Origin: Candidatus Latescibacterota bacterium | GTDB lineage: Bacteria > Latescibacterota > UBA2968 > UBA8231 | DNA: 64,000 nucleotides | NCBI GenBank assembly: GCA_965215195.1 | Contig: CBDCDC010000002.1 | Location: 1,824,001-1,888,000, forward strand | Direction: 5' to 3' | Notes under the pieces: model-generated | What the model was told of the DNA's origin: nothing | Database searches by the model: none | What the model saw: the letters and a program-made list of their open reading frames with translations, nothing else | Made by a program: the position numbers and the translations under genes | In this document: piece by piece, positions 1 to 10,506 of the stretch | Position numbering within the stretch: the first letter of the stretch is position 1 | How the letters are laid out: every line of letters begins with the position of its first letter

Positions 1-1071
1 ATACGCGATTGTACTCGCATTATCTTCAATCGATCTGCGAATAGGGACAATACCCCTCGTGATTGGAGAGAGGTAGAGAAGTCATTGAGTGAGTTCGCGT
101 TTGGCCTATTTAAGGAGTTCTATGATGACAGAAACGCCGTTCAAGAGGTGCAAAACCAGAACTATAATGAGGGAGATGAGATACAAAAAAGATCAAGGCT
201 AGCCAAACCACGGATGTCTGAGGCAACACCACGTTTACCGGGTATGGATCCTCACATCCAGAAAACAATAGGACTTCCTCCAGGTGAAAACAGATGGAAA
301 ACGCTAATCGAACAAAACGTTCGAGACCCTCAAGTGGCGCACCACGCCCCTGATTCGGTTATATTTGTCAGCCAATGGATGGCCTTTCCCCTATTCGCTA
401 TCGACAATTTGAGGCAACTGCACGCAGCATACGAAAACAACCTTCTTAGAATGCCGCAAAATGTATACCGTCGCTACACGACCAAGGACTATATCAAATA
501 TCCGGAGGTCCTACCGCCTAAAGACGACGACGAAGCGCAAATGCTAGTGGATGCCCTACAACCGCTCATTGGTGGTATCCTACTCGGGGTAGTGGCTTAT
601 GACAAACGACGATTCTACCGAACTTACCGAGCACAGGGCCGAAGGCGCGAGGAGTATTACGGACTTAATCTCGAGGACGCACGCCGGACTTTGGCCCGAG
701 ACCAGATCATACGAGATAGACTGCGCCAAGAGGTACAAAACATTCAGGATAACTGGCGATTGAATGGCAATAACCTCGCTTTTGAGCAGTACTTGGCCCT
801 CCAAAGACATTTAGTGGAGCATGTATATCCAGATACCAGAGTTGTGATACGCGGCCAGAGTGAGGATGTGGACGTATTCCACAGCTTGCTTAGCGAGGCT
901 TTCGGCGAGAGTTTCAATAAGGAGCGGCAGCACTTGGACATCAGCGAAGAAGAATTGGACGGCCGTATCTACGAACACTTGCAGGACAAAGATCGTTTTG
1001 CCAAACCCCTAGACTACCGCGATCCTCACTGCAAAGACGATATATATGTGATGGATGGTGCCAATGCCTAG
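1..1071 (+). CDS. C-terminal part of a large protein truncated by the window edge; possibly tubulin-like (Tubulin_2 type) domain protein
   Basis: Frame is open from base 1 to TAG at 1069-1071. Segment VIFVSQWMAFPLFAIDNLRQLHAAYE resembles, from memory, C-terminal regions of bacterial tubulin-like domain proteins. No GTPase motif lies inside the window. Confidence 0.5.
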   Translation: MRDCTRIIFNRSANRDNTPRDWREVEKSLSEFAFGLFKEFYDDRNAVQEVQNQNYNEGDEIQKRSRLAKPRMSEATPRLPGMDPHIQKTIGLPPGENRWKTLIEQNVRDPQVAHHAPDSVIFVSQWMAFPLFAIDNLRQLHAAYENNLLRMPQNVYRRYTTKDYIKYPEVLPPKDDDEAQMLVDALQPLIGGILLGVVAYDKRRFYRTYRAQGRRREEYYGLNLEDARRTLARDQIIRDRLRQEVQNIQDNWRLNGNNLAFEQYLALQRHLVEHVYPDTRVVIRGQSEDVDVFHSLLSEAFGESFNKERQHLDISEEELDGRIYEHLQDKDRFAKPLDYRDPHCKDDIYVMDGANA

Positions 1072-4000
1072 GGAAGCGAGTCAAGAGCGGGTCGATAAGG
1101 CGATAGGTGCTTGCCCTGTTTGTCAGTGGCCTTATGGGAGCGGAAGCATCTTTTGCAGCAGTTGCGGGATTCAACTCGTCCGTCTAGAGGTATTTCCCAA
1201 GCCCAATGAGCTATTGACCCTCTTCGAAGGTTATCCAGTCATCATGCGGTTCGAGAATACCGGGAAAATACCCGTGGAACTGGAACGTCTCGACGGAGTG
1301 GAGTGGGGAGAATGGGTTTCGGAAACGAATTGGCCCGCCTCCTTGGATCCAAAGGAAAAAATAGAAATACGCCGGCTGCATACCGAGCGTCGCGGCCAAC
1401 GAGGGCGGTTGACTCTGCACCCCACGCTGTTGCCGATTTCATTTCGTTACCGGGTCCAAAAGGCTCCCCGAATCTGGCTGACTGACGAGCAGGGGCGAGA
1501 GTTTGAACAAGGCACTGACGGCGCACAGTTGTGGGCGGTAAATCGGGAAGCCCAATGGCACTATCTAGCCCTTCACACCACAAGCGAAGTGATTTTGGCA
1601 AAGCCTCCCCGTCTGTTCAAGGGAGATCAGATGGTGGATATAGTGCCGGCGGAAGAGGTAAGCTATCCCTTCCGCTTGGATCCAGATAAAGCCTTTCCGG
1701 TAAGACTCACCCAAAATCAGCCTCTGCCTGAAGAAGGGCATCCTGTACATCTCGTTTTTCCCATCCAGAACATAGGTGATGTCGATTTTCATCTCAATCT
1801 AAAGTACACTCTTCGGCCGGTGCTCAGAGTGGAGTTTAAGCCGCGGGGTTTCACCGGTGACACGGCACTTATCAGCGGAAGCCGAAAACAGAAGAATGTA
1901 AGTGCTACCATTACGCACTTACGGGGCGCACCACTACGCATAAATGCCGTGACTAGCGATACGTCTTGGCTACAGATCGTTGACAGCAAGGAGACCCCGG
2001 TCGTCCTTAACCCTCAGAATTCAACGGCGGGAGCTGATGAGGAGAGTGTGCTAAATATCCAGTTGCAAATGAAGACTGTTGATATTCCTCGGGTAACAGA
2101 ATCAAAGCACTTTGAACCCAAGATCGTCGTCAAGGGAGAGGCTATAGGAGCGGAAGATTCGGCGTTCGAAAAGGGGTATTCGCTTCCTGTCGGAGTAGTT
2201 CCTCCCAAACCGTTAGATCATCCTATTGGCATCGATTTTGGGACGACCAACTCTTGCTTGGCCTATTATGTTGTTGAAGATGAAGAAACAATGCCTCGCT
2301 TGGCAGAATTCGAGAGCAATGATCCTCGTGCCGAAGTGCCGACTGTCTTTCAGCTTAGAGCAATTAGGAAGAGAGCCGAACGTCTGGAAATTCTCGGAAC
2401 TCTGGAGGCTGACGAGCATCATTTGGTGGCGACCGAGAACGAGGAAGCTATTATGAGCTTTGGACGTAAGCCATTCGACCAGGTCGCCGGGATCAATCGG
2501 GACAACTTCGACGGCAATGATATCTGGAATTCTATGAGCAGTATCTGCTGGAATTTCAAATACGCTCTCAACCGACCCTATGATCCAAATATCTATATTG
2601 ATACCGGGATGTCGGGTATTTTGATCAATGGGCATCGCCCTAATACGCGGAATATCAGTCTGACTCCGGTGGATCAAGTAGCTATTTACCTCCGGTTTAT
2701 GGTAGAACGCTTCATTGAAGAATCCGGGTATTTGCCCAAAGAGATCTTTCTGACTTATCCGGCGGTATTCAACCGCCAAAAACAGGCCCTACAGGACGCC
2801 GCCGAAAAGGCTTTGCAGGAGCGCGACATTGAGACCCGCCTAGAGATCAGTGAACCTGAAGCTATCGCGGTGTATTATGTATGGCAGCTTATGGTTAGGG
2901 CCAATAAAGATAATATGGAAGAGGAGCCTGCCGATAAAGATGATGTGGATGAACGGATCATTGGGGTGTTCGACTGCGGCGGGGGGACGACCGATATCTC
3001 CATCGTACGCTATACTATGGGGGATGGTGAATATCAAATGAATCAAGTGGAAATTCTCGGTTCTGATGGTGACAATCGACTAGGGGGGAACCTACTGACA
3101 TTTTGCTTGGCTAAATACTTCTATGGGGAACTCGTCCCTGAACAGTATCGTAGTCGTTTTCCCTTTCCCAAGGATCTACGCGATGGCTTACGCACTCAAG
3201 AGGCTAGTGTGAAAACGAACTTCCTAAAGCTCTACCAGTTAGCCGAGATGATAAAGACGAACAGCACAACTTATGAGCGATTCCAAGGATGTTTTTCCCC
3301 ACAGCGCTATGAGGAACTGAACCAGATAAGGGATGTGGGATTGCTGGACCTGCTCGCCAGTGGGGAGAAACTGAATTGGCCTAGCATTGAGTTAGCCAGC
3401 CTCGAAGAGAGCGATGTATTCCGGGTCAATGGCTTGAAGCGCAGCATCAACAACGGCGACTTGCCAAGGCAACTTAGCTCTATGGATTATCAGGCTATTT
3501 TTTCTGTGCTTCGCCGAGAATTGGAGCGGGGTTTCAAGAAACTGGACTTGATGCAGAAGGAGCTTTACAAGCGGAAAATTATATCCAATTTCCAGTTGGA
3601 TCATCTTATTTTGGCAGGCAATTCGTCCAAATTGCCGATTGTGAATGAGATCGCTCAAGGTATGGAAACCAAAGAAGTTTCGGCCCCTGCTCTTTCTTCA
3701 CCGGATTTTAATAATGAACGAAAGGTTAGCGTAGCCGCGGGAGCGGCTCTTTACGGAAGGTCTCTACTGGAAGATCAAGAATCCCCCCTCGAAGTCTCTG
3801 GAATACACAAACTAAATTATCCGCTAGGTTCCTACAATACGATGAGAGGCTTCAGGCCCATTTTTGATCGCTGGCTTTCCCTAGAGAAGGGAAAAGTACA
3901 TTCCCGTGCGAGCAAAATTATCTCCAAGCGTCAATCCCGCACTCGACGAATCTTACTGTTCGAATTTTTCGGTTGGAACTACAAAAACCTGAAGGCAGAC

Positions 4001-4210
4001 CGGCAGCAAGTGGCAGCTATTCCCATGCCACTGGAGGAGCGGTCTTTTAAGCAGGCCGCTTATTGGCAGTACAAACTCGAGCTTCGGGGCGACGAAAACA
4101 ATCGCGGTCAGCTCTATTACAACTTCGCGGTAGGACAGGAGAAGGATGGAAGTGATTTTGAAGAAATCTATGATGGATACTTGAAATGCGAGGACTTTAA
4201 CTATAGTTGA
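1055..4210 (+). CDS. Hsp70/DnaK-fold ATPase with N-terminal zinc ribbon and Ig-like region
   Basis: CPVC..CSSC zinc ribbon; Hsp70 NBD motifs IGIDFGTTNS, LTYPA, ISEPEAIA, VFDCGGGTTDISI, LAEMIK, ILAGNSSKLP, SVAAGAA; start overlaps upstream stop. Confidence 0.88.
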   Translation: MVPMPREASQERVDKAIGACPVCQWPYGSGSIFCSSCGIQLVRLEVFPKPNELLTLFEGYPVIMRFENTGKIPVELERLDGVEWGEWVSETNWPASLDPKEKIEIRRLHTERRGQRGRLTLHPTLLPISFRYRVQKAPRIWLTDEQGREFEQGTDGAQLWAVNREAQWHYLALHTTSEVILAKPPRLFKGDQMVDIVPAEEVSYPFRLDPDKAFPVRLTQNQPLPEEGHPVHLVFPIQNIGDVDFHLNLKYTLRPVLRVEFKPRGFTGDTALISGSRKQKNVSATITHLRGAPLRINAVTSDTSWLQIVDSKETPVVLNPQNSTAGADEESVLNIQLQMKTVDIPRVTESKHFEPKIVVKGEAIGAEDSAFEKGYSLPVGVVPPKPLDHPIGIDFGTTNSCLAYYVVEDEETMPRLAEFESNDPRAEVPTVFQLRAIRKRAERLEILGTLEADEHHLVATENEEAIMSFGRKPFDQVAGINRDNFDGNDIWNSMSSICWNFKYALNRPYDPNIYIDTGMSGILINGHRPNTRNISLTPVDQVAIYLRFMVERFIEESGYLPKEIFLTYPAVFNRQKQALQDAAEKALQERDIETRLEISEPEAIAVYYVWQLMVRANKDNMEEEPADKDDVDERIIGVFDCGGGTTDISIVRYTMGDGEYQMNQVEILGSDGDNRLGGNLLTFCLAKYFYGELVPEQYRSRFPFPKDLRDGLRTQEASVKTNFLKLYQLAEMIKTNSTTYERFQGCFSPQRYEELNQIRDVGLLDLLASGEKLNWPSIELASLEESDVFRVNGLKRSINNGDLPRQLSSMDYQAIFSVLRRELERGFKKLDLMQKELYKRKIISNFQLDHLILAGNSSKLPIVNEIAQGMETKEVSAPALSSPDFNNERKVSVAAGAALYGRSLLEDQESPLEVSGIHKLNYPLGSYNTMRGFRPIFDRWLSLEKGKVHSRASKIISKRQSRTRRILLFEFFGWNYKNLKADRQQVAAIPMPLEERSFKQAAYWQYKLELRGDENNRGQLYYNFAVGQEKDGSDFEEIYDGYLKCEDFNYS

Positions 4211-4234
4211 GTGTAAAGCCAGCAAAAGATATTT

Positions 4235-5167
4235 ATGGCAGAATTCCAAGAAAAGGTTGATGCTCTAGGCAACGAAGTTGCCCTCTGGGAGAAAGAACTC
4301 CAAGCTCTGCGAGAAATCGTCGACAAGACAAGACAGATCCGAGAAGAATTACACAAACGCGGTCTCGGCGACCTCGTATTCGCGCAGATCCTCGATGTAG
4401 CCAAGGGTTTCGATGGGGCGGAAGAGAGCTTTGTAGAAAAGGTGAACGAGTTCTTAAACGATATGAACAACTTCAGAGACAAGTTGGCAAAGTTCCGCGA
4501 CATTATGCAAGCGTCCTACGATGACTACGCAGAGCTCCGTCAATTCATCCCTACTAACACCAAATTTCAAGAGCTACAAAAGCTAGAGCTCGATCTGCAA
4601 AATAGATTAAAATCATTCCAAGAAGAAGTACAGGCTGCCTCCGAAAAATGGAATAAAAAATATTCAGATATTACAAATACCCGATATCGTTTCCGAGAAA
4701 TGCTCAACGAACTGCCCCTAGAAGTCGAAGAGATACCGTCGACACAGGATGCTGAGACTATTAACAAGGACATCGAAAAGATCAAGGAGGCCGTGAATGG
4801 GTTGGAGTTGGTCTCCCTTATAGCGAAGGAATCGGATCTCAAAGATCAATTGACGACTATCCAAGCTAAGATAGACAATTTCTGTATTCCGTGGGATACT
4901 GTCCTGACTAATTTAATTGACCAGTTGTTCAAAGAGAAAAAATCTCTAGAACAGAAACCCGCGAAATTGGAAAGATTTGTCCAAGAACGCGGCCTTGAGT
5001 TGATTTGGCCGGAGCAAGGGGACGAACACTCGCTAGCATATCACCGAATTTTAGATGAGCGAGAAGATGATCAGGTAAGCCGCGGTCAAGTGATTCGACC
5101 TGTTACACCTGGACTACGCCGGGGGGCTGAAGTAATTATCAAGGCCGGGATTTGGCTGGCGAAATGA
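4235..5167 (+). CDS. Coiled-coil protein with C-terminal GrpE-like domain
   Basis: Long E/K/L/Q heptad-rich region, then WPEQGDEHSLAYHRIL...RGQVIRPVTPGLRRGAEVIIKAGIWLAK, matching the GrpE beta-domain pattern; directly downstream of the Hsp70-like gene. Confidence 0.7.
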   Translation: MAEFQEKVDALGNEVALWEKELQALREIVDKTRQIREELHKRGLGDLVFAQILDVAKGFDGAEESFVEKVNEFLNDMNNFRDKLAKFRDIMQASYDDYAELRQFIPTNTKFQELQKLELDLQNRLKSFQEEVQAASEKWNKKYSDITNTRYRFREMLNELPLEVEEIPSTQDAETINKDIEKIKEAVNGLELVSLIAKESDLKDQLTTIQAKIDNFCIPWDTVLTNLIDQLFKEKKSLEQKPAKLERFVQERGLELIWPEQGDEHSLAYHRILDEREDDQVSRGQVIRPVTPGLRRGAEVIIKAGIWLAK

Positions 5168-5241
5168 GCAAAATCTTCTCTTACGGTAGAGTGTCTGTCC
5201 TATAACTGAGCATTGCAGCTACAGCAGAGAAAGCCATTTCC

Positions 5242-7026
5242 ATGAGTTTAGACTTCTTAGCCCAGAACAGCGATCAGATTCGGGACTTTTTTGTTTTTCT
5301 TATCATCTTGTTCGGCCTAGCTGCGCTTGTCCTATTTGTCAAAGGGTACAGAAGAACGCAGACATATCGCCTCGGATTGGGTGCTATTGAGAGCTGGGAG
5401 AGAGACAATCCAGATTTCAATATAGAAGAGGAGACCGACCAATCCCCCGAAGATGTTATTAAGGAAGCCAAGCATCCCTTGGCTGTCCGTTGGCTCGAAC
5501 GTTTTATAGCCTTATATCGGCAAAATAAGGCTCCTGATGTAGAAGGTTTGATAGGCTCTATCGAACACGAACTCACCCGGCACGACGAAGCATTCCGCTC
5601 GCTTACCAGCAGCCTCATTCTATTGGGCCTACTAGGCACATTTGTTGGATTAATAATCGTGGTCATACCTATCCCGGGTATTATCCAAGGAGCGCAGACT
5701 TCACCAACATTGAGTCAAGAAGTAAAAATAGAGGATGTATTTAGTACCATCCTAGAAGGGTTGGGGCAGTCAGTAAAAGGGATGCCACTGGCGTTCATTA
5801 CCAGTATAATAGGGCTTTTCGCCACCTTAATCCTAAATGGCTTATACAGCCTTCTATTACTACGCACTAGGAATACGTTGTTGGCAAACATAGAAGAGTG
5901 TTTCAACGCGAAAATCGCCCCTAGGTTTGCTATAATCCCGCCGCAGTTACGTTTGAGCCGCGTCTTCACCCGAACAGTAAACGACCTATACGATAAGTAC
6001 TTCACTACTCTTTCCGACTACTTAGACAAAAGACTCAAGGAAATTGTCGATGTTTACGATAATTATTTCCTTCTCTTTTCTGGCCATTTAGACAAAAGAC
6101 TCAAGGAAATCGTCGATAGTAACGCTCGCTTGGCCACACTTGTAGAAGAGAGCGGCACGAAGCTCAAGGAAAGTAGCGAGGCCAGTCTGAAAAGCGCGGA
6201 GATTTTTGAGCAGCACAAGGAGACGGTAGCTGCGGGGGCAAACGAAATAATGAGAGCGGCTAAGGAGTTTTCTCAACACATCAAGAACTTTGAGCGGCTA
6301 AGCGACCCCCTGAATGCGCTCAAGGACAGCGTCGATACTATGCTCGAGGAGAACAAGCGACTGATGGCCCGACAGTTTCAATCCTTTGATGAGCGGATGG
6401 ACAAACAATCCAAGTTATTTGAGGCGCGAATGGAGACCCTAGGAGACGGCCTAGCCGAGACTCTGGAGACGATAAGAGGATTGAATGACACAGATTATCG
6501 TCCCAATTTCGTGAACATCCAGAACCTGCTCACCGCTGTCAGGGAGAGCCAAGATGCCTTCCTCGAATTTCAGAAGAAGACGCTCAACGAGCAAGGTGAA
6601 GCGTTTGAAAAGGCCAAGCAACCCCTACAAGATGAATTGGAAAGGCTCCGCCAAGATCTGCAAAGATTGGGCAAGGAGCAAGGCGAGGCGTTTGAACAGG
6701 CCAAAAAGCCCTTACAGGATGAATCGGAAAGGTTGCGCCAAGAGCTACAAGGGTTGAACAAGGAGATAGTATTGTTGCAGAACCAGCTAGGCCAAGTGCT
6801 AGGAGCCATCAATCAAGGTTTCAAAAAAACGGACGAGGACCTCCAAGTACTGAAAGCTATCGATCAGGTAATCCCTCAGCTTGAAGACATGCATGCGACG
6901 GCGCAGGCAATAGAAAAACAGTTGGATGGCATGGCGAAATCGCCGCAAGGCATCGCCGGACGATCTCGAAGAAAATGGAATTGGAATAGTATTCGCCGAT
7001 TATTCAAGAAAAAGAGCAAGGAATAG
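5242..7026 (+). CDS. MotA/TolQ/ExbB-family (ZorA-like) membrane protein with long cytoplasmic coiled-coil tail
   Basis: Three hydrophobic helices with LLGLLGTFVGL and AFITSIIGL signatures, followed by >300 aa of helical tail; paired with a MotB/OmpA gene. Confidence 0.82.
   Translation: MSLDFLAQNSDQIRDFFVFLIILFGLAALVLFVKGYRRTQTYRLGLGAIESWERDNPDFNIEEETDQSPEDVIKEAKHPLAVRWLERFIALYRQNKAPDVEGLIGSIEHELTRHDEAFRSLTSSLILLGLLGTFVGLIIVVIPIPGIIQGAQTSPTLSQEVKIEDVFSTILEGLGQSVKGMPLAFITSIIGLFATLILNGLYSLLLLRTRNTLLANIEECFNAKIAPRFAIIPPQLRLSRVFTRTVNDLYDKYFTTLSDYLDKRLKEIVDVYDNYFLLFSGHLDKRLKEIVDSNARLATLVEESGTKLKESSEASLKSAEIFEQHKETVAAGANEIMRAAKEFSQHIKNFERLSDPLNALKDSVDTMLEENKRLMARQFQSFDERMDKQSKLFEARMETLGDGLAETLETIRGLNDTDYRPNFVNIQNLLTAVRESQDAFLEFQKKTLNEQGEAFEKAKQPLQDELERLRQDLQRLGKEQGEAFEQAKKPLQDESERLRQELQGLNKEIVLLQNQLGQVLGAINQGFKKTDEDLQVLKAIDQVIPQLEDMHATAQAIEKQLDGMAKSPQGIAGRSRRKWNWNSIRRLFKKKSKE
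5989..6120 (+). repeat. 66-bp (22-aa) tandem duplication inside the ZorA-like gene
   Basis: TTAGACAAAAGACTCAAGGAAAT(T/C)GTCGAT at 6022-6051 and 6088-6117; protein YDKYFTTLSDYLDKRLKEIVD / YDNYFLLFSGHLDKRLKEIVD. Confidence 0.9.
6589..6762 (+). repeat. 87-bp (29-aa) tandem duplication inside the ZorA-like tail
   Basis: EQGEAFEKAKQPLQDELERLRQDLQRLGK / EQGEAFEQAKKPLQDESERLRQELQGLNK; units start at 6589 and 6676. Confidence 0.9.
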
Positions 7027-7065
7027 TCAGGCCCATCGGCTGAATGCTTGGGAAAGCAGCCTCGG

Positions 7066-7722
7066 ATGAAAAGGGATCGCAGTAGCCATAGTGGGCTCAA
7101 TTTCTGGCCTTCTTTCACGGACGCAATCACGGCTATTTTCATTTGCGTCACTTTTTTTCTCGTCGTGATGGTGATCAAGAATTACGTGGACCTGAGCCGC
7201 TTGCGTGCGCTGAAAGAACTGGTGGGTAAGATAGAGAAGGATCTCGACGAGTTAGAAGAATTCATGGGAGGAGAGGACGTCACCGTAGAAGAAGGTACGA
7301 TTGTAATGCGTAGTGATATCCTGTTCTCTTTTGATGAATCCGCTCTTGATGATATTCCCGTCGAAGGGCAAAATCAGCTCAGGCGAATAGGTCAAAAATT
7401 AAAGCAGTTTATTGAAAAAAAAGACAGTAAATTGTTCAGTATTGTGGTAGAGGGCCACACCGACAGTTACGGCGAGAGGGAATACAACCGCATTTTATCC
7501 CTGAAACGATCTCAAACTGTGGTGGACTATTGGGAGCAGGTCGACTTCACTTGGGAAAATTTCGATATCGTCCCGGTTGGCTTAGGCGAGCGGGAGCTGG
7601 TTGTTTTAACCGGAACAAAGGATGAACAGTCCCCTAACCGACGTATCGTGATCCGATTGGTGCCTAAATTTAGCCAACTAATCCAGAGCCTGAAGGAGCA
7701 GAACATCCTACTGAGGGATTAG
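7066..7722 (+). CDS. MotB/OmpA-family (ZorB-like) protein
   Basis: N-terminal FWPSFTD with the conserved Asp leading into one TM helix; peptidoglycan-binding OmpA motifs VEGHTD, YNRILSLKR, NRRIVI. Confidence 0.88.
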   Translation: MKRDRSSHSGLNFWPSFTDAITAIFICVTFFLVVMVIKNYVDLSRLRALKELVGKIEKDLDELEEFMGGEDVTVEEGTIVMRSDILFSFDESALDDIPVEGQNQLRRIGQKLKQFIEKKDSKLFSIVVEGHTDSYGEREYNRILSLKRSQTVVDYWEQVDFTWENFDIVPVGLGERELVVLTGTKDEQSPNRRIVIRLVPKFSQLIQSLKEQNILLRD

Positions 7723-7956: not shown

Positions 7957-7965
7957 AGCCCAAGC

Positions 7966-8160
7966 AAATAACGGCGCAGGTGTCCGCTGTTAGACGCAGC
8001 GGAAGAATAGGGAAGGCAGTGCAAATCTGCCGCGGTCCCGCCACTGTGATCGGTTGACGGCCCACCGGCCGTCGCGTCCCCGACATCAGCCACTGATCCC
8101 CACGTGGATCGGGAAGGAGTCGGGCGGCACATAACCGGAAGTCAGGAGACCTGCCTGCGC
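7966..8160 (+). promoter_or_regulatory. Cobalamin (B12) riboswitch
   Basis: Conserved blocks AGGTG (7978), AATAGGGAA (8006), GTGCAAAT..GCGGTCCCGCCACTGTGA, GCCACTG, GGGAAGG and B12 box AAGTCAGGAGACCTGCC (8139-8155); precedes cobalamin uptake genes. Confidence 0.95.
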
Positions 8161-8199
8161 TGAGGTGAAGACTCCTTCGGCAGAAAGGTTGGTCCACCG

Positions 8200-10464
8200 G
8201 TGCCTAGCACAAGCACCCAGACCCGCTCTCATTCGAGGGTGGGCTTTTTTATTGTTGTTCTCTCACTGGCCCTGCATCCCGAAGCTCTCTTGGCCGGGTC
8301 TCTACAGGGCCGGTTGCTCGACCCGGACGCGGGTCGCCCTGTGTCCGGTGCCGTAGTGACGCTGAGTGTCCCATCCGGCGCAGTCCGCTCCGTCCGCAGC
8401 GATACGACCGGCTCCTTCCGCCTCGAAAACCTGTCGACAGGCACTTGGGATGTGCGCGTGGAGCGGCTGGGTTACCGGCTTCTGCAAGGCCGCATCCAGA
8501 TCGGCGCATCCCCCACCTCAGTTGAGTTGCACCTGCAATCCCTGCCCATGCTCATGGACGCGCTGGTGGTCCGCGCCCGGCGCAACCCCGAAGGCAAGCA
8601 CGTTGCCTCTTTCGTCGAAACCATCGCCTTGGGCAACCAGCGTACTCCCGGCGCGGACCTAGCTCAGATCCTCGACCGCGCCGTGGGCGTCAACACGCGG
8701 CGCTATGGAGGGCTAGGCGCATTCAGTACGCTTTCCATTCGCGGTTCCACCGCCGAACAGGTCCAAGTTTTCCTCGACGGGGTGCCGCTCAACGCGGCTG
8801 TTGGCGGAGGAGTTGATTTGGGCAGCTTACCCGTGGGTGGCGTGGAGAGCGTCGATATATACCGGGGCGCGGTGCCGGCGCGCTTTGGCGGCAACAGCCT
8901 CGGGGGCGTGGTCCACATCCGCACTCGGCCACTCGGCGGCAAGGTTCGTACGCGCTTGCACACGGCCACCGGTTCGCACAGCACCCGCCAACTGGGGGCC
9001 TCGCTCAGCGGCCCTTATAGGGGCTGGGAGTACTTGGGCTTGGTCAACTACCGAGTTAGTCGCAACGACTTCCGCTTTTGGGACGACAACGGCACCGAGT
9101 ACAATGCCCAAGACGACGGCTGGGCGCGGCGGCTCAACAGCGATTTTCGCGGCTTGCGCGGCCTATCCAAAATCGGGCGCAGCTTGGGTGCCAGCCGCTT
9201 GCAAGTCCACAGCATCTTTGACCTGAGCTACAAAGGTATCCCCGGCCTTGGCAACAACCAGTCCCGGCACACTCGCTACGACACCTGGCGTCATGTCGCC
9301 GAAGCTGCGCTCTTCGGTCCGCTGGGCGATGGTCGCGCCGGATACCGGATTAAAGCCCACCATTCCCGCGAAAAAGACGAGTACCGGGATCGGCGCGGCG
9401 AAGTGGGTTTGGGTCGCCAACACGACCGCAACATCACCCAGAGCTTGGGCCTGCGCGGCGAAGTGAATGCCCTGTTGCCCGGCCAGTCTTTGCTCACCGC
9501 TTTTGTCGCGGCCCGGCGCGAAACTTTTGTACCCGACGATTTGCTGCGGCCCGACAGTCGGTTTTTGCGCAGTCGCCGCCGAGCCTTGGCCGTTGGGACC
9601 GAGGTGGAGGTGCCGTTGGGGCCGCGCTTGACCTTTAATGCTGGTACGCAGGCAGAAGGGCTTGACGACCGCTTTTTCGACCGGAAGAACTTCGCTCCCA
9701 GCGCGGTGTTGCCGAGCCGGGACAACGGCGAAATCCTGTGGGGCCATCGCGTGGGCGCGGCCCTAGACTTAGGGGCTGGTTTGGCCCTCAAGGCCCACAA
9801 CGGTCGCTATCGGCGTGCGCCCAATTTCTTTGAACTCTTCGGCGACCGGGGTGCGGTGATCGGCAATACCGATCTCGTCGGTGAAGAAGGGCACAACTGG
9901 GATCTGGGTTTGGTTTTTCGCGGTCCGGTCGACGGAGTGGGGCTGACCTTGGCCGAGGTGGTGTACTATCACAAGCGCGTCGAAAACCTCATTCGCTTTA
10001 TGCAAAACTCGCAGCGGGTGTCGCGGCCCCACAATGTGGGCCGGGCCTTGCTGCGCGGCGTGGAGACGCGGATTGAAGCGCGGTTGTTGCCAAGGCTGGC
10101 ACTGCGCGGCAATTACGCGTACCAGCGGGCTGAAAATCGCACTCCGTTTTCTTTTGAACGGGGCAATGACCTGCCCAATGCGCCGCGCCATCGGCTCAAT
10201 ACGCACGTCTCCTTCGACCTAGGTCGTGCGGAGCTGTACGGAGAATTTAGTCGCGAAAGCCGGCATTTTCTCGACCGGGCCAATCTGCGGACTGTGCCCG
10301 TCCGCACCCTGTACAACCTCGGCGGAACCTTGCCGCTGGTCGAGGGCATTTCCTTGTCTTGGGAGTTGCACAACCTGACCGACAATCAAGTCGCCGATCT
10401 GTGGGGCTATCCGCTGCCGGGCCGCTCGTATGGGGTTTCTATGCACTATGCTACGTACCAGTAG
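8200..10464 (+). CDS. TonB-dependent receptor, BtuB-like (start uncertain)
   Basis: Signal peptide, carboxypeptidase-regulatory-like domain, plug motifs (SIRGS..QVQVFLDGVPLN, VDIYRG), C-terminal NLTD..GYPLPGRSY; riboswitch upstream. Confidence 0.9.
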   Translation: MPSTSTQTRSHSRVGFFIVVLSLALHPEALLAGSLQGRLLDPDAGRPVSGAVVTLSVPSGAVRSVRSDTTGSFRLENLSTGTWDVRVERLGYRLLQGRIQIGASPTSVELHLQSLPMLMDALVVRARRNPEGKHVASFVETIALGNQRTPGADLAQILDRAVGVNTRRYGGLGAFSTLSIRGSTAEQVQVFLDGVPLNAAVGGGVDLGSLPVGGVESVDIYRGAVPARFGGNSLGGVVHIRTRPLGGKVRTRLHTATGSHSTRQLGASLSGPYRGWEYLGLVNYRVSRNDFRFWDDNGTEYNAQDDGWARRLNSDFRGLRGLSKIGRSLGASRLQVHSIFDLSYKGIPGLGNNQSRHTRYDTWRHVAEAALFGPLGDGRAGYRIKAHHSREKDEYRDRRGEVGLGRQHDRNITQSLGLRGEVNALLPGQSLLTAFVAARRETFVPDDLLRPDSRFLRSRRRALAVGTEVEVPLGPRLTFNAGTQAEGLDDRFFDRKNFAPSAVLPSRDNGEILWGHRVGAALDLGAGLALKAHNGRYRRAPNFFELFGDRGAVIGNTDLVGEEGHNWDLGLVFRGPVDGVGLTLAEVVYYHKRVENLIRFMQNSQRVSRPHNVGRALLRGVETRIEARLLPRLALRGNYAYQRAENRTPFSFERGNDLPNAPRHRLNTHVSFDLGRAELYGEFSRESRHFLDRANLRTVPVRTLYNLGGTLPLVEGISLSWELHNLTDNQVADLWGYPLPGRSYGVSMHYATYQ
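8222..8250 (+). terminator. Putative riboswitch-controlled intrinsic terminator/attenuator
   Basis: CCCGCTCTC-ATTC-GAGGGTGGG stem-loop followed by CTTTTTT, about 60 nt after the aptamer. Confidence 0.6.
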
Positions 10465-10506
10465 CGGGGTGCCGGGCCGACGCACAGTCAGACCATTGGT
10501 TGGAAC

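Follow-up and report, generated by a model that had tools for sequence, protein, structure and literature searches.

An eight-gene cassette of Latescibacterota combines an FtsZl1 tubulin-like protein and an Hsp70/GrpE-type pair with a ZorAB-like stator

Why would a bacterium encode a long-tailed stator pair, reminiscent of Zorya anti-phage systems, next to an Hsp70-type ATPase and a tubulin-like protein? The question is raised by a 64,000-nt stretch of DNA from Candidatus Latescibacterota bacterium (assembly GCA_965215195.1, contig CBDCDC010000002.1; G000:C2:1824001-1888000 in our numbering), which we refer to as the window. Positions 1-7722 hold five program-called open reading frames (ORFs), all on the plus strand and separated by -17, 24, 74 and 21 nt, and the GC content in 500-nt steps is 0.42-0.54 over 1-7500 versus 0.61-0.69 over 8001-10500. 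An earlier note on this DNA had described five co-oriented, close-spaced and AT-rich genes with a long-tailed stator pair and the motif FWPSFTD, a description that the ORFs, the GC profile and the family matches confirm. The five genes are real, but as a unit they are incomplete: the window edge cuts the first down to the final 356 codons of a gene that encodes 1153 aa, and three upstream genes had been missed. We read the complete cassette as a stator-bearing variant of the predicted FtsZl1-vWA-OmpA system with a dedicated Hsp70/GrpE pair, and not as Zorya proper, because it has no ZorC, ZorD, ZorE, ZorF or ZorG and its similarity to ZorA/ZorB models is weak. The component parts have been predicted before, and the present combination is apparently new.

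To complete the operon, we read L001, a 20-kb stretch whose end falls inside the window. The low-GC tract starts 6.5 kb upstream of the window and carries three further plus-strand genes there. The complete cassette comprises eight plus-strand genes in 14.2 kb, with a GC content of 0.50 (0.60 for the genome) and with every overlap or spacer 76 nt or less; the window's five ORFs are its distal (3') portion. The genes are listed here in cassette order, in window coordinates unless L001 is named (NBD, nucleotide-binding domain; TM, transmembrane; MIDAS, metal-ion-dependent adhesion site).

L001 11510-12880, plus strand: Zn-ribbon protein P0006, upstream of the window; probable true start near codon 35
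L001 12840-14468, plus strand: vWA-like protein P0007, upstream of the window; signal peptide, MIDAS motif, one TM segment
L001 14484-15533, plus strand: trypsin-like protease P0008, upstream of the window; lipoprotein-type signal, C-terminal TM segments
L001 15610-19071 (G000:C2:1821610-1825071), plus strand: Tubulin_2/FtsZl1 gene P0009, 1153 aa
1..1071, plus strand: 3' end of the FtsZl1 gene (last 356 codons, 5' open in the window), Tubulin_2 PF13809
1055..4210, plus strand: Zn-ribbon-Hsp70-NBD protein P0001, 1051 aa; overlaps the tubulin-like gene by 17 nt
4235..5167, plus strand: GrpE-like coiled-coil protein P0002, 310 aa; GrpE-type C-terminal beta-domain at ~245-310
5242..7026, plus strand: ZorA-like stator A subunit P0003, 594 aa; three TM helices and a helical tail
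5989..6117, plus strand: 66-bp x 2.0 tandem duplication in the A-subunit tail
6585..6765, plus strand: 87-bp x 2.1 tandem repeat in the A-subunit tail, 29-aa unit
7048..7722, plus strand: ZorB-like stator B subunit P0004, 224 aa; N[FVI]WPSF[TA]D, one TM helix, linker, OmpA domain

The tubulin-like protein P0009 matches Tubulin_2 over residues 28-390 with an E-value of 1.6e-64 (218.9 bits against a cut-off of 27), in agreement with the earlier assignment. It contains the motif GGGTGSG, extends for ~750 more residues after the Tubulin_2 domain and is the product of the only Tubulin_2 gene in this genome. Both the FtsZl1/Tubulin_2 protein and the linked OmpA protein of the system predicted in 2010 (see below) are thus present.

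P0001 begins with a Zn ribbon (CxxC...CxxC, residues 20-38), followed by ~350 residues without a family match, which appear beta-rich by eye, the NBD (~388-900) and a C-terminal domain of ~150 residues. The protein matches Pfam Hsp70 (PF00012) with an E-value of 2.6e-11, and a profile of 19 Hsp70-like sequences matches the NBD chains of E. coli DnaK in three collinear pieces (E 5e-23), so that the Hsp70 fold proposed earlier is well founded. The phosphate motifs DFGTTNS and DCGGGTTD as well as EPEA and LxGN are invariant in all 19 sequences, down to 26% identity; P0001 therefore has an actin-fold NBD with the phosphate-1, phosphate-2 and adenosine motifs of Hsp70/DnaK. Neither Pfam nor a PDB profile covers any part of P0001 beyond the NBD, including a substrate-binding domain or lid. 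To the eye, the C-terminal 150 residues may resemble the beta-subdomain of a substrate-binding domain.

The GrpE assignment of P0002 depends on its C-terminus. The whole protein reaches 22.9 bits with Pfam GrpE (cut-off 25.8), on the coiled coil only. When the C-terminal 110 residues of P0002 and 13 orthologues are scanned, GrpE is the commonest Pfam match (10 of 14, all below cut-off, best E 0.003), and the fragment from the window aligns to positions 99-159 of the 165 in the Pfam profile. A comparison by hhalign of the family C-terminus with 30 housekeeping GrpE sequences from the same phylum gives a probability of 86.8% (E 4.3e-6) and runs to the last residue of both, whereas four controls (the GrpE alignment in reversed form and three unrelated ones) give 0.2% or less. 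A hidden Markov model (HMM) iterated on operon-linked proteins only detects 22 of the 30 housekeeping GrpE proteins, all at E 0.00025 or better. The family C-terminus profile finds no GrpE match among PDB sequences at E 10 or better. We accept the C-terminal domain of P0002 as homologous to GrpE, as the earlier note had supposed, and P0002 as a predicted exchange factor. The genome carries a separate housekeeping GrpE on contig C1. A second GrpE-domain ORF lies outside the window (G000:C2:1039294-1039791, 47.4 bits, above cut-off); it encodes 366 aa with an internally duplicated N-terminal region.

The P0001-P0002 pair shares with DnaK-GrpE the DnaK-type NBD motifs and an adjacently encoded partner in which a long coiled coil is followed by a GrpE-type beta-domain at the C-terminus. 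It differs in the ~385 extra N-terminal residues of the Hsp70-like protein and in the short C-terminal domain that replaces a recognisable substrate-binding domain and lid. A complex prediction for the NBD (residues 385-905) with P0002 (residues 100-310) scored 0.43, and the best of three controls scored 0.00. The mark applied is attained by 58 of 80 solved complexes and by 2 of 110 mismatched pairs, yet scores of 0.60 or under account for both of these mismatches and for just 7 of the 80 solved complexes. Contact agreement between runs was at least 0%, and the partner's predicted local distance difference test (pLDDT) score was at least 80. Since the DnaK-GrpE complex has already been solved, this pass may reflect likeness only, and the model gives weak support to a pairing of the Hsp70-like NBD with P0002.

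The first three proteins of the cassette extend it to the envelope. P0006 (456 aa as the longest ORF; the alignment of relatives begins at residue 34) carries a Zn ribbon (CxxC...CxxC) at its N-terminus and matches no family in Pfam and PADLOC scans. In the ESM Atlas, its nearest clusters are unnamed (0.91) and beta-propeller (PQQ) clusters come at just 0.77-0.78, so a beta-propeller identity is a weak lead. P0007 (542 aa) has a signal-like N-terminus, the motif DGSGSM and one TM segment (416-447), which is followed by ~95 cytoplasmic residues. No Pfam vWA match was found; nevertheless, D45, S47, S49, T105 and D126 are invariant in its family (alignment A6, 16 sequences, down to 17% identity), which corresponds to the MIDAS pattern of vWA domains. 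Among PDB sequences, the family profile reaches a region of a TROVE-domain protein, which we take to be a vWA domain, only at E 0.25. Its top PDB match is 8s05_A (E 1.2e-6, residues 32-143), deposited as 'Conserved protein', and this entry may derive from a protein of a related operon. P0008 (349 aa) combines a lipoprotein-type signal with a Trypsin_2 domain (E 1.2e-29) and hydrophobic segments at the C-terminus.

The stator subunits resemble those of Zorya in architecture more than in sequence. P0003 has hydrophobic segments at 11-38, 120-153 and 178-208, the motifs GLLGTFxG and AFxTSxxGL and a tail of ~365 residues predicted to be all-helical. It matches PADLOC ZorA3 with an E-value of 7.5e-12 and Pfam MotA_ExbB only at 0.088. 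P0004 matches PADLOC ZorB1 over residues 8-218 (E 2e-21) and 8qyd_F, from a solved ZorAB entry, over residues 7-159 (E 3.6e-6), which covers the TM region. Its motif FWPSFTD precedes a single TM segment with D25 as the channel aspartate, and its OmpA domain reaches 46.2 bits (PF00691, cut-off 27.2); P0004 thus has both the TM aspartate and the peptidoglycan-binding OmpA-like domain of a ZorB. All 12 ZorB-like sequences that were aligned, three of them from distant metagenomes, conserve N[FVI]WPSF[TA]D without exception. NCBIfam flagellar MotB models reach only the OmpA part of P0004 (E 7e-5). The Zorya likeness of the stator is one of architecture, a helical tail of ~365 residues and an OmpA-domain partner: P0003 is ZorA-like as a MotA/ExbB-fold protein with a long C-terminal helical tail, whereas by sequence neither subunit belongs to the curated ZorA/ZorB families of NCBIfam. 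The Zorya relationship claimed for the pair thus stands on the PADLOC matches, the architecture and 8qyd_F; it is tempered by scores far below the NCBIfam cut-offs and by a fold that equally resembles ExbB/TolQ.

This last point comes from an AlphaFold2 (AF2) model of P0003, in which residues 1-230 have pLDDT values mostly of 80-90. The VIA Z-scores of the model are 12.1-13.1 with ExbB/TolQ, 11.5-11.9 with ZorA (rmsd 3.7-3.9 over 194-208 residues for the ZorA chains, in trimmed rows), 8.7 with PomA and 7.9 with MotA, and Foldseek agrees; the predicted fold thus excludes a flagellar stator. Searches of PDB sequences with P0003 alone and with its family profile returned coiled-coil noise and neither ZorA nor ExbB.

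An A subunit as near to ExbB/TolQ as to ZorA raises the possibility that the stator energises, in the manner of ExbBD/TolQR, a periplasmic or surface process carried out by the vWA-like protein and the protease (processing, export or adhesion), with the tubulin-like and Hsp70-like proteins as a separate cytoplasmic regulator. The vWA and protease domains are indeed predicted to be periplasmic and membrane-anchored. We nevertheless regard this explanation as improbable. ExbBD/TolQR systems consist of a short, tailless A subunit, a B subunit without OmpA domain and a TonB or TolA partner. The cassette has none of these: its B subunit carries an OmpA-type domain and a ZorB-like N-terminal region, unlike ExbD/TolR, the operon encodes no TonB- or TolA-like partner, no NCBIfam TolQ or ExbB model matches P0003 at E 0.1 or better, and the long cytoplasmic tail of P0003 directs the output inward.

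Long-tailed stators of this kind are numerous. Among 1.84 billion representatives, 3656 proteins match a profile of the P0003 TM domain with an E-value of at most 0.001, but only eight with one of at most 1e-30. A length of 400 aa or more is found in 112 of the 150 best relatives, and 51 of the best 98 match a ZorA model (best E 1e-17 to 1e-19), which places P0003 in a broad group of long-tailed stators, distant from Zorya I-III. A word-based homologue search with the TM region yielded 26 proteins, all close relatives, and a tblastn search of plasmids with the ZorB-like protein gave 78 records, matched in the OmpA domain only and with no annotated ZorB. The tail itself varies: only one of six close relatives (L031) has the 66-bp duplication (alignment A2), and the 87-bp repeat is present in one to three copies among close relatives. 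Outside the window, a 519-aa ORF (G000:C1:383842-384057) with a sub-threshold MotA_ExbB match of 22 bits may be another long-tailed A subunit.

With the operon complete, it can be compared with systems described before. Zorya I-III share with the cassette the long-tailed A subunit with three TM segments and the B subunit with a TM aspartate and an OmpA domain, as far as the consulted parts of the relevant papers describe them (PMC11946911, PMC11890865, PMC12422006), and the best matches of the cassette in the defence library are ZorA3 and ZorB1. The partners differ, being tubulin-fold and Hsp70-fold NTPases instead of a nuclease. According to the consulted text of PMC12505986, a hallmark of Zorya is a beta-sheet in the cytoplasmic portion of the A subunit that links TM1 to TM2; the P0003 model has none. 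No PADLOC model of ZorC, ZorD, ZorE, ZorF or ZorG matches the six other proteins (E up to 0.1 or 0.01), and canonical Zorya was therefore rejected; nor do such genes lie just upstream in the completed operon, the alternative that the earlier note had allowed for. The terms 'Hsp70' and 'tubulin' do not occur in the consulted parts of PMC11890865 and PMC12505986.

One close precedent is a set of FtsZl1, vWA, GTPase and OmpA-family operons predicted to form a membrane-remodelling system (Makarova and Koonin, 2010; PMC2875224, consulted in part). The two agree in several respects: the FtsZl1 protein is extended by a large C-terminal region and encoded next to a vWA protein (vWA-like in the cassette), an OmpA-domain protein belongs to the set, many of the partners are membrane-associated, and the distribution is sparse. 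The P-loop GTPase and the protein kinase, which the consulted text gives as frequent FtsZl1 partners, are missing, and the Walker A motif [AG]xxxxGK[ST] is absent from all eight cassette proteins by regular-expression search. The words Hsp70, DnaK, MotA and ExbB do not appear in the main text of PMC2875224, although its supplementary families A1-A2 and B1-B9 may list some of these genes. A second precedent is a class of conflict systems built around DO-GTPases and GAP1, in which tubulin or HSP70 plus GrpE recur as themes (Kaur et al., 2020; PMC7159879, also consulted in part). According to that text, these systems have tubulin-like proteins with C-terminal helical extensions, TM-bearing vWA proteins, HSP70 with GrpE, trypsin-like peptidases and Zn ribbons, all with a counterpart in the cassette; the proposed NTP-driven thresholding logic would be shared as well. 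The two themes are described there as non-overlapping and as largely confined to Firmicutes and Actinobacteria, whereas the cassette unites them in one operon, in Latescibacterota. No DO-GTPase of the TRAFAC clade is found among the eight proteins (no P-loop motif and no GTPase family match), and the strings 'tolq', 'exbb', 'proton channel' and 'mota' have no occurrence in the main text of PMC7159879. The Hsp70-like proteins of CoCoNuT systems stand in a different context, that of McrBC (PMC11090510, consulted part). We found no paper that joins a ZorAB-like stator with tubulin-like, Hsp70 or GrpE proteins, although supplementary tables may list related neighbourhoods. The claim of an undescribed type of system therefore holds for the combination, which is apparently new, and not for its parts, given the FtsZl1-vWA-OmpA prediction of 2010 and the tubulin and HSP70/GrpE modules of 2020.

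Does the combination hold together in other genomes? The Hsp70-like protein is present in 16 of 168 genomes of the phylum, including this one. Among the other genomes of the genus it occurs in 7 of 30, and within the family in 8 of 75; a second family has it in 6 of 31 genomes and a third in 1 of 22. Leaving aside the fragmented genomes G118 and G075, we examined thirteen other loci, and the gene order is identical in all 13, seven from close genomes and six from other families; conservation of the gene order was one of the tests that the earlier note had set. The order is kept and no ZorC/D/E/F/G match was found, so that nothing the note had named as contrary to its idea was encountered. All eight genes occur in the seven close relatives in the same order and at the same chromosomal site, with an overall identity of 68-96% (ZorB-like 90-96%, vWA-like 86-93%, protease 86-92%, ZorA-like 73-88%, tubulin-like 72-86%, Hsp70-like 69-81%, GrpE-like 68-83%; flanking glycogen-debranching gene 84-88%). 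The six genomes from other families keep the order at 25-50% identity; their GrpE-like gene is undetectable by BLAST and bears an N-terminal TM segment.

The cassette lies between the glycogen-debranching gene (GDE_C/GDE_N) and a cobalamin riboswitch at 7961-8172 (RF00174, 114 bits). No gene separates its end from the riboswitch, as had been noted from the window, and the riboswitch precedes a gene for a 754-aa TonB-dependent receptor-like protein (8200-10464). A terminator-like hairpin at 8222-8243 lies just within the start of this ORF. Four of five complete genomes of the genus that lack the cassette have the flanking glycogen-debranching and TonB-receptor genes 0.3-1.1 kb apart, indicating a clean insertion or deletion. 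The fifth, G133, has at this site a gene (L033 2619-8402) whose 1927-aa product combines He_PIG Ig domains with a C-terminal signal for type IX secretion, and this alternative cargo shows that the site is variable. The GC content of the island is below that of its flanks in 13 of 13 other loci. Genes are damaged in four of these: an IS5-like DDE transposase (DDE_Tnp_1_5, E 7e-39; L032 10652-11662) splits the tubulin-like gene of G146 into two ORFs, the ZorA-like gene of G103 is split across two frames, and in both G053 and G085 the ZorB-like gene is missing its OmpA part. Such decay is typical of dispensable systems, and the cassette is horizontally acquired, accessory and mobile. Its neighbours in this genome are ordinary metabolic and transport genes. 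A PADLOC scan of 52 ORFs that flank 14 stator-bearing loci matched 16 models, including pAgo, TIR, SIR2, Csx1, a TnpB-like Cas12f and TnsB; since these matches to defence and mobile elements were pooled over loci and have no baseline, they are only suggestive.

Beyond the phylum, the FtsZl1 protein has many relatives of similar length (517 at E 1e-5 or better among 7999 scored candidates), and by source name these Tubulin_2 proteins come from Pseudomonadota, Acidobacteriota, Gemmatimonadetes, Fibrobacteres and others. We scanned metagenome contigs with an alignment of 25 Tubulin_2 sequences; of 374 pattern matches, 212 encode relatives, and the best 80 were taken as loci. The HMMs used to search them were derived from the Latescibacterota families and then iterated on these loci. 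Because the flanks reach at most 10 kb, stator counts are a lower bound. An Hsp70-like gene is present in 29 of the 80 loci, and in 25 of the 42 in which at least 3 kb lies downstream of the tubulin gene; a vWA-like gene is present in 32 of the 56 with at least 2 kb upstream. A GrpE-type C-terminus was detected in 10 of the 29 Hsp70-like loci, which is an undercount, as Pfam-positive proteins of L089 and L082 were missed. These two proteins (907 and 739 aa), encoded downstream of the Hsp70-like gene, have C-terminal GrpE matches of 30.4 and 28.5 bits against the cut-off of 25.8.

A ZorA-like gene is found in 6 of the 29 Hsp70-like loci (L077, L082, L109, L111, L112 and L113, of which L112 and L113 are near-identical), and in three of them (L109, L111 and L112) a ZorB-like gene adjoins it. 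L139 gave a fourth ZorB-like match, located elsewhere and on the opposite strand. L109, L111 and L112 have vWA-like, tubulin-like, Hsp70-like, GrpE-like, MotA_ExbB and OmpA genes in cassette order, and in L109 the last two pass their Pfam cut-offs (MotA_ExbB 24.8 bits versus 22.9, OmpA 62.8 versus 27.2). PADLOC recognises ZorA in five of six A subunits scanned (E 1e-8 to 1e-12) and ZorB in four of four B subunits. These counts indicate a core of vWA-like, tubulin-like, Hsp70-like and GrpE-like proteins, to which the stator is added as an accessory module in a subset; in the Latescibacterota lineages the stator is fixed. Where the window cassette has a single protein with a GrpE-type C-terminus, L109, L111, L112 and L139 encode two in tandem, a short one of 208-250 aa and a long one of 485-728 aa. 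In L068 (16814-23546), a more distant metagenomic relative, a trio of genes (~109 aa, 304 aa and a third gene) is repeated three times after the Hsp70-like gene. The third gene of trios 1 and 3 has a GrpE-type C-terminus, and no stator lies within 6.9 kb.

The 23 of 29 core-bearing metagenomic loci without a stator in the available DNA, together with the size of the long-tailed ZorA-like family in its own right, could mean that two unrelated units lie side by side here, an FtsZl1-vWA-Hsp70 system and an orphan ZorAB-like pair. We consider this very improbable. Adjacency and order are kept in 13 of 13 Latescibacterota loci across 25-50% identity and recur in L077, L082, L109, L111 and L112/L113, the same-strand spacers that join the stator genes measure only 74 and 21 nt, and gains and losses affect the block in its entirety.

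What the cassette does can be approached from where its products would reside. Judging from signal peptides and TM segments, the vWA-like protein and the trypsin-like protease, both membrane-anchored, and the peptidoglycan-binding domain of the ZorB-like subunit would face the periplasm. A stator of ExbB/TolQ/ZorA fold, with a 5:2 stoichiometry assumed by homology, would span the membrane, and its tail of ~365 residues would meet the Zn-ribbon protein, the FtsZl1 GTPase and the Hsp70-type ATPase with its GrpE-type factor in the cytoplasm. Upon envelope disturbance, which the vWA-protease pair may sense or process, the stator would engage peptidoglycan and conduct ions, as proposed for Zorya. 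Movement of the tail would be relayed to the cytoplasmic module, where the Hsp70/GrpE cycle could gate assembly or disassembly of a tubulin-like polymer at the membrane, and the output may be local membrane remodelling or sealing, or cell arrest. We favour, with a probability of roughly 0.45, such an envelope-spanning, stator-triggered, Hsp70/GrpE-gated tubulin-like assembly that answers envelope breach or infection. Homology, topology and the accessory, decaying and mobile character of the cassette are what this mechanism builds on. The sequences show what the components are, how they are ordered and conserved, and that the cassette moves and decays; from there on, we infer every functional step. 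The role is most likely one in conflict (phage or mobile-element defence) or in a response to envelope breach, and from the sequences either would be plausible.

Several observations weigh against this reading. The curated stator models score poorly, NCBIfam ZorA_4 with 16.9 bits on P0003 (cut-off 500) and ZorB1 with 34.8 bits on P0004 (cut-off 400), and the modelled fold of P0003 does not separate ZorA from ExbB/TolQ. The stator, found in just 6 of the 29 Hsp70-like metagenomic loci, is not obligatory for the core, bearing in mind that this count is a lower bound. The fold of P0002 is unconfirmed, because its AF2 model is poor (mean pLDDT 52, 27-45 in the C-terminal domain, helical over residues 1-250 at low confidence), and no J-domain partner was detected among the operon proteins with Pfam. 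Family-model scans found no nuclease, toxin or other classical effector domain among the eight proteins, the cassette is outside any recognisable defence island here and in close relatives, and the only alternative cargo found at its site is a surface protein. Finally, the ZorB-like, vWA-like and protease proteins (86-96%) exceed the flanking core gene (84-88%) in conservation. Fast-evolving defence genes usually differ from this pattern, which recent transfer among relatives could explain.

These points bear on a serious rival, a non-defence cytoskeletal or membrane-remodelling machine in which the polymer and Hsp70/GrpE shape or repair the inner membrane (vesicles, invaginations or envelope maintenance) while the stator powers it and anchors it to peptidoglycan. 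This role is the one predicted for FtsZl1, vWA and OmpA operons in the consulted part of PMC2875224, and all predicted components lie at or beside the membrane; the high conservation of several of them, the lack of a nuclease or toxin and the non-defence neighbours would suit it as well. We nevertheless hold it to be less likely than the favoured reading. The cassette is patchy within the genus (7 of 30), cleanly inserted or deleted, foreign in GC content and repeatedly inactivated, which excludes a housekeeping role and leaves room for an accessory physiological one, and the long variable tail and the ZorB-like TM/plug region resemble a defence stator and not Tol or Exb. A bolder form of the favoured assembly is a cytoskeleton-based immunity against phages or other invaders, in which a Zorya-type peptidoglycan-anchored motor serves as breach sensor and an Hsp70/GrpE-gated tubulin-like polymer, in place of a nuclease, as output; taken in this strict form, we hold it to be unlikely.

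The cassette ties the widespread FtsZl1 family, in one conserved operon, to a ZorAB-type stator, an Hsp70-type ATPase and a GrpE-type factor, and so turns a vague prediction of 'membrane remodelling' into specific hypotheses that can be tested with mutants. As regards 5:2 ion motors, the partners of long-tailed stators seem from this cassette to reach well outside the set of Zorya effectors, and the 150 nearest relatives of this stator are mostly long-tailed and weakly ZorA-like. The FtsZl1 family was still treated as an unexplained outlier in 2023 (PMC9871819, consulted part). If the cytoskeletal-immunity reading were true, it would provide the first function for this family, unexplained since 2010.

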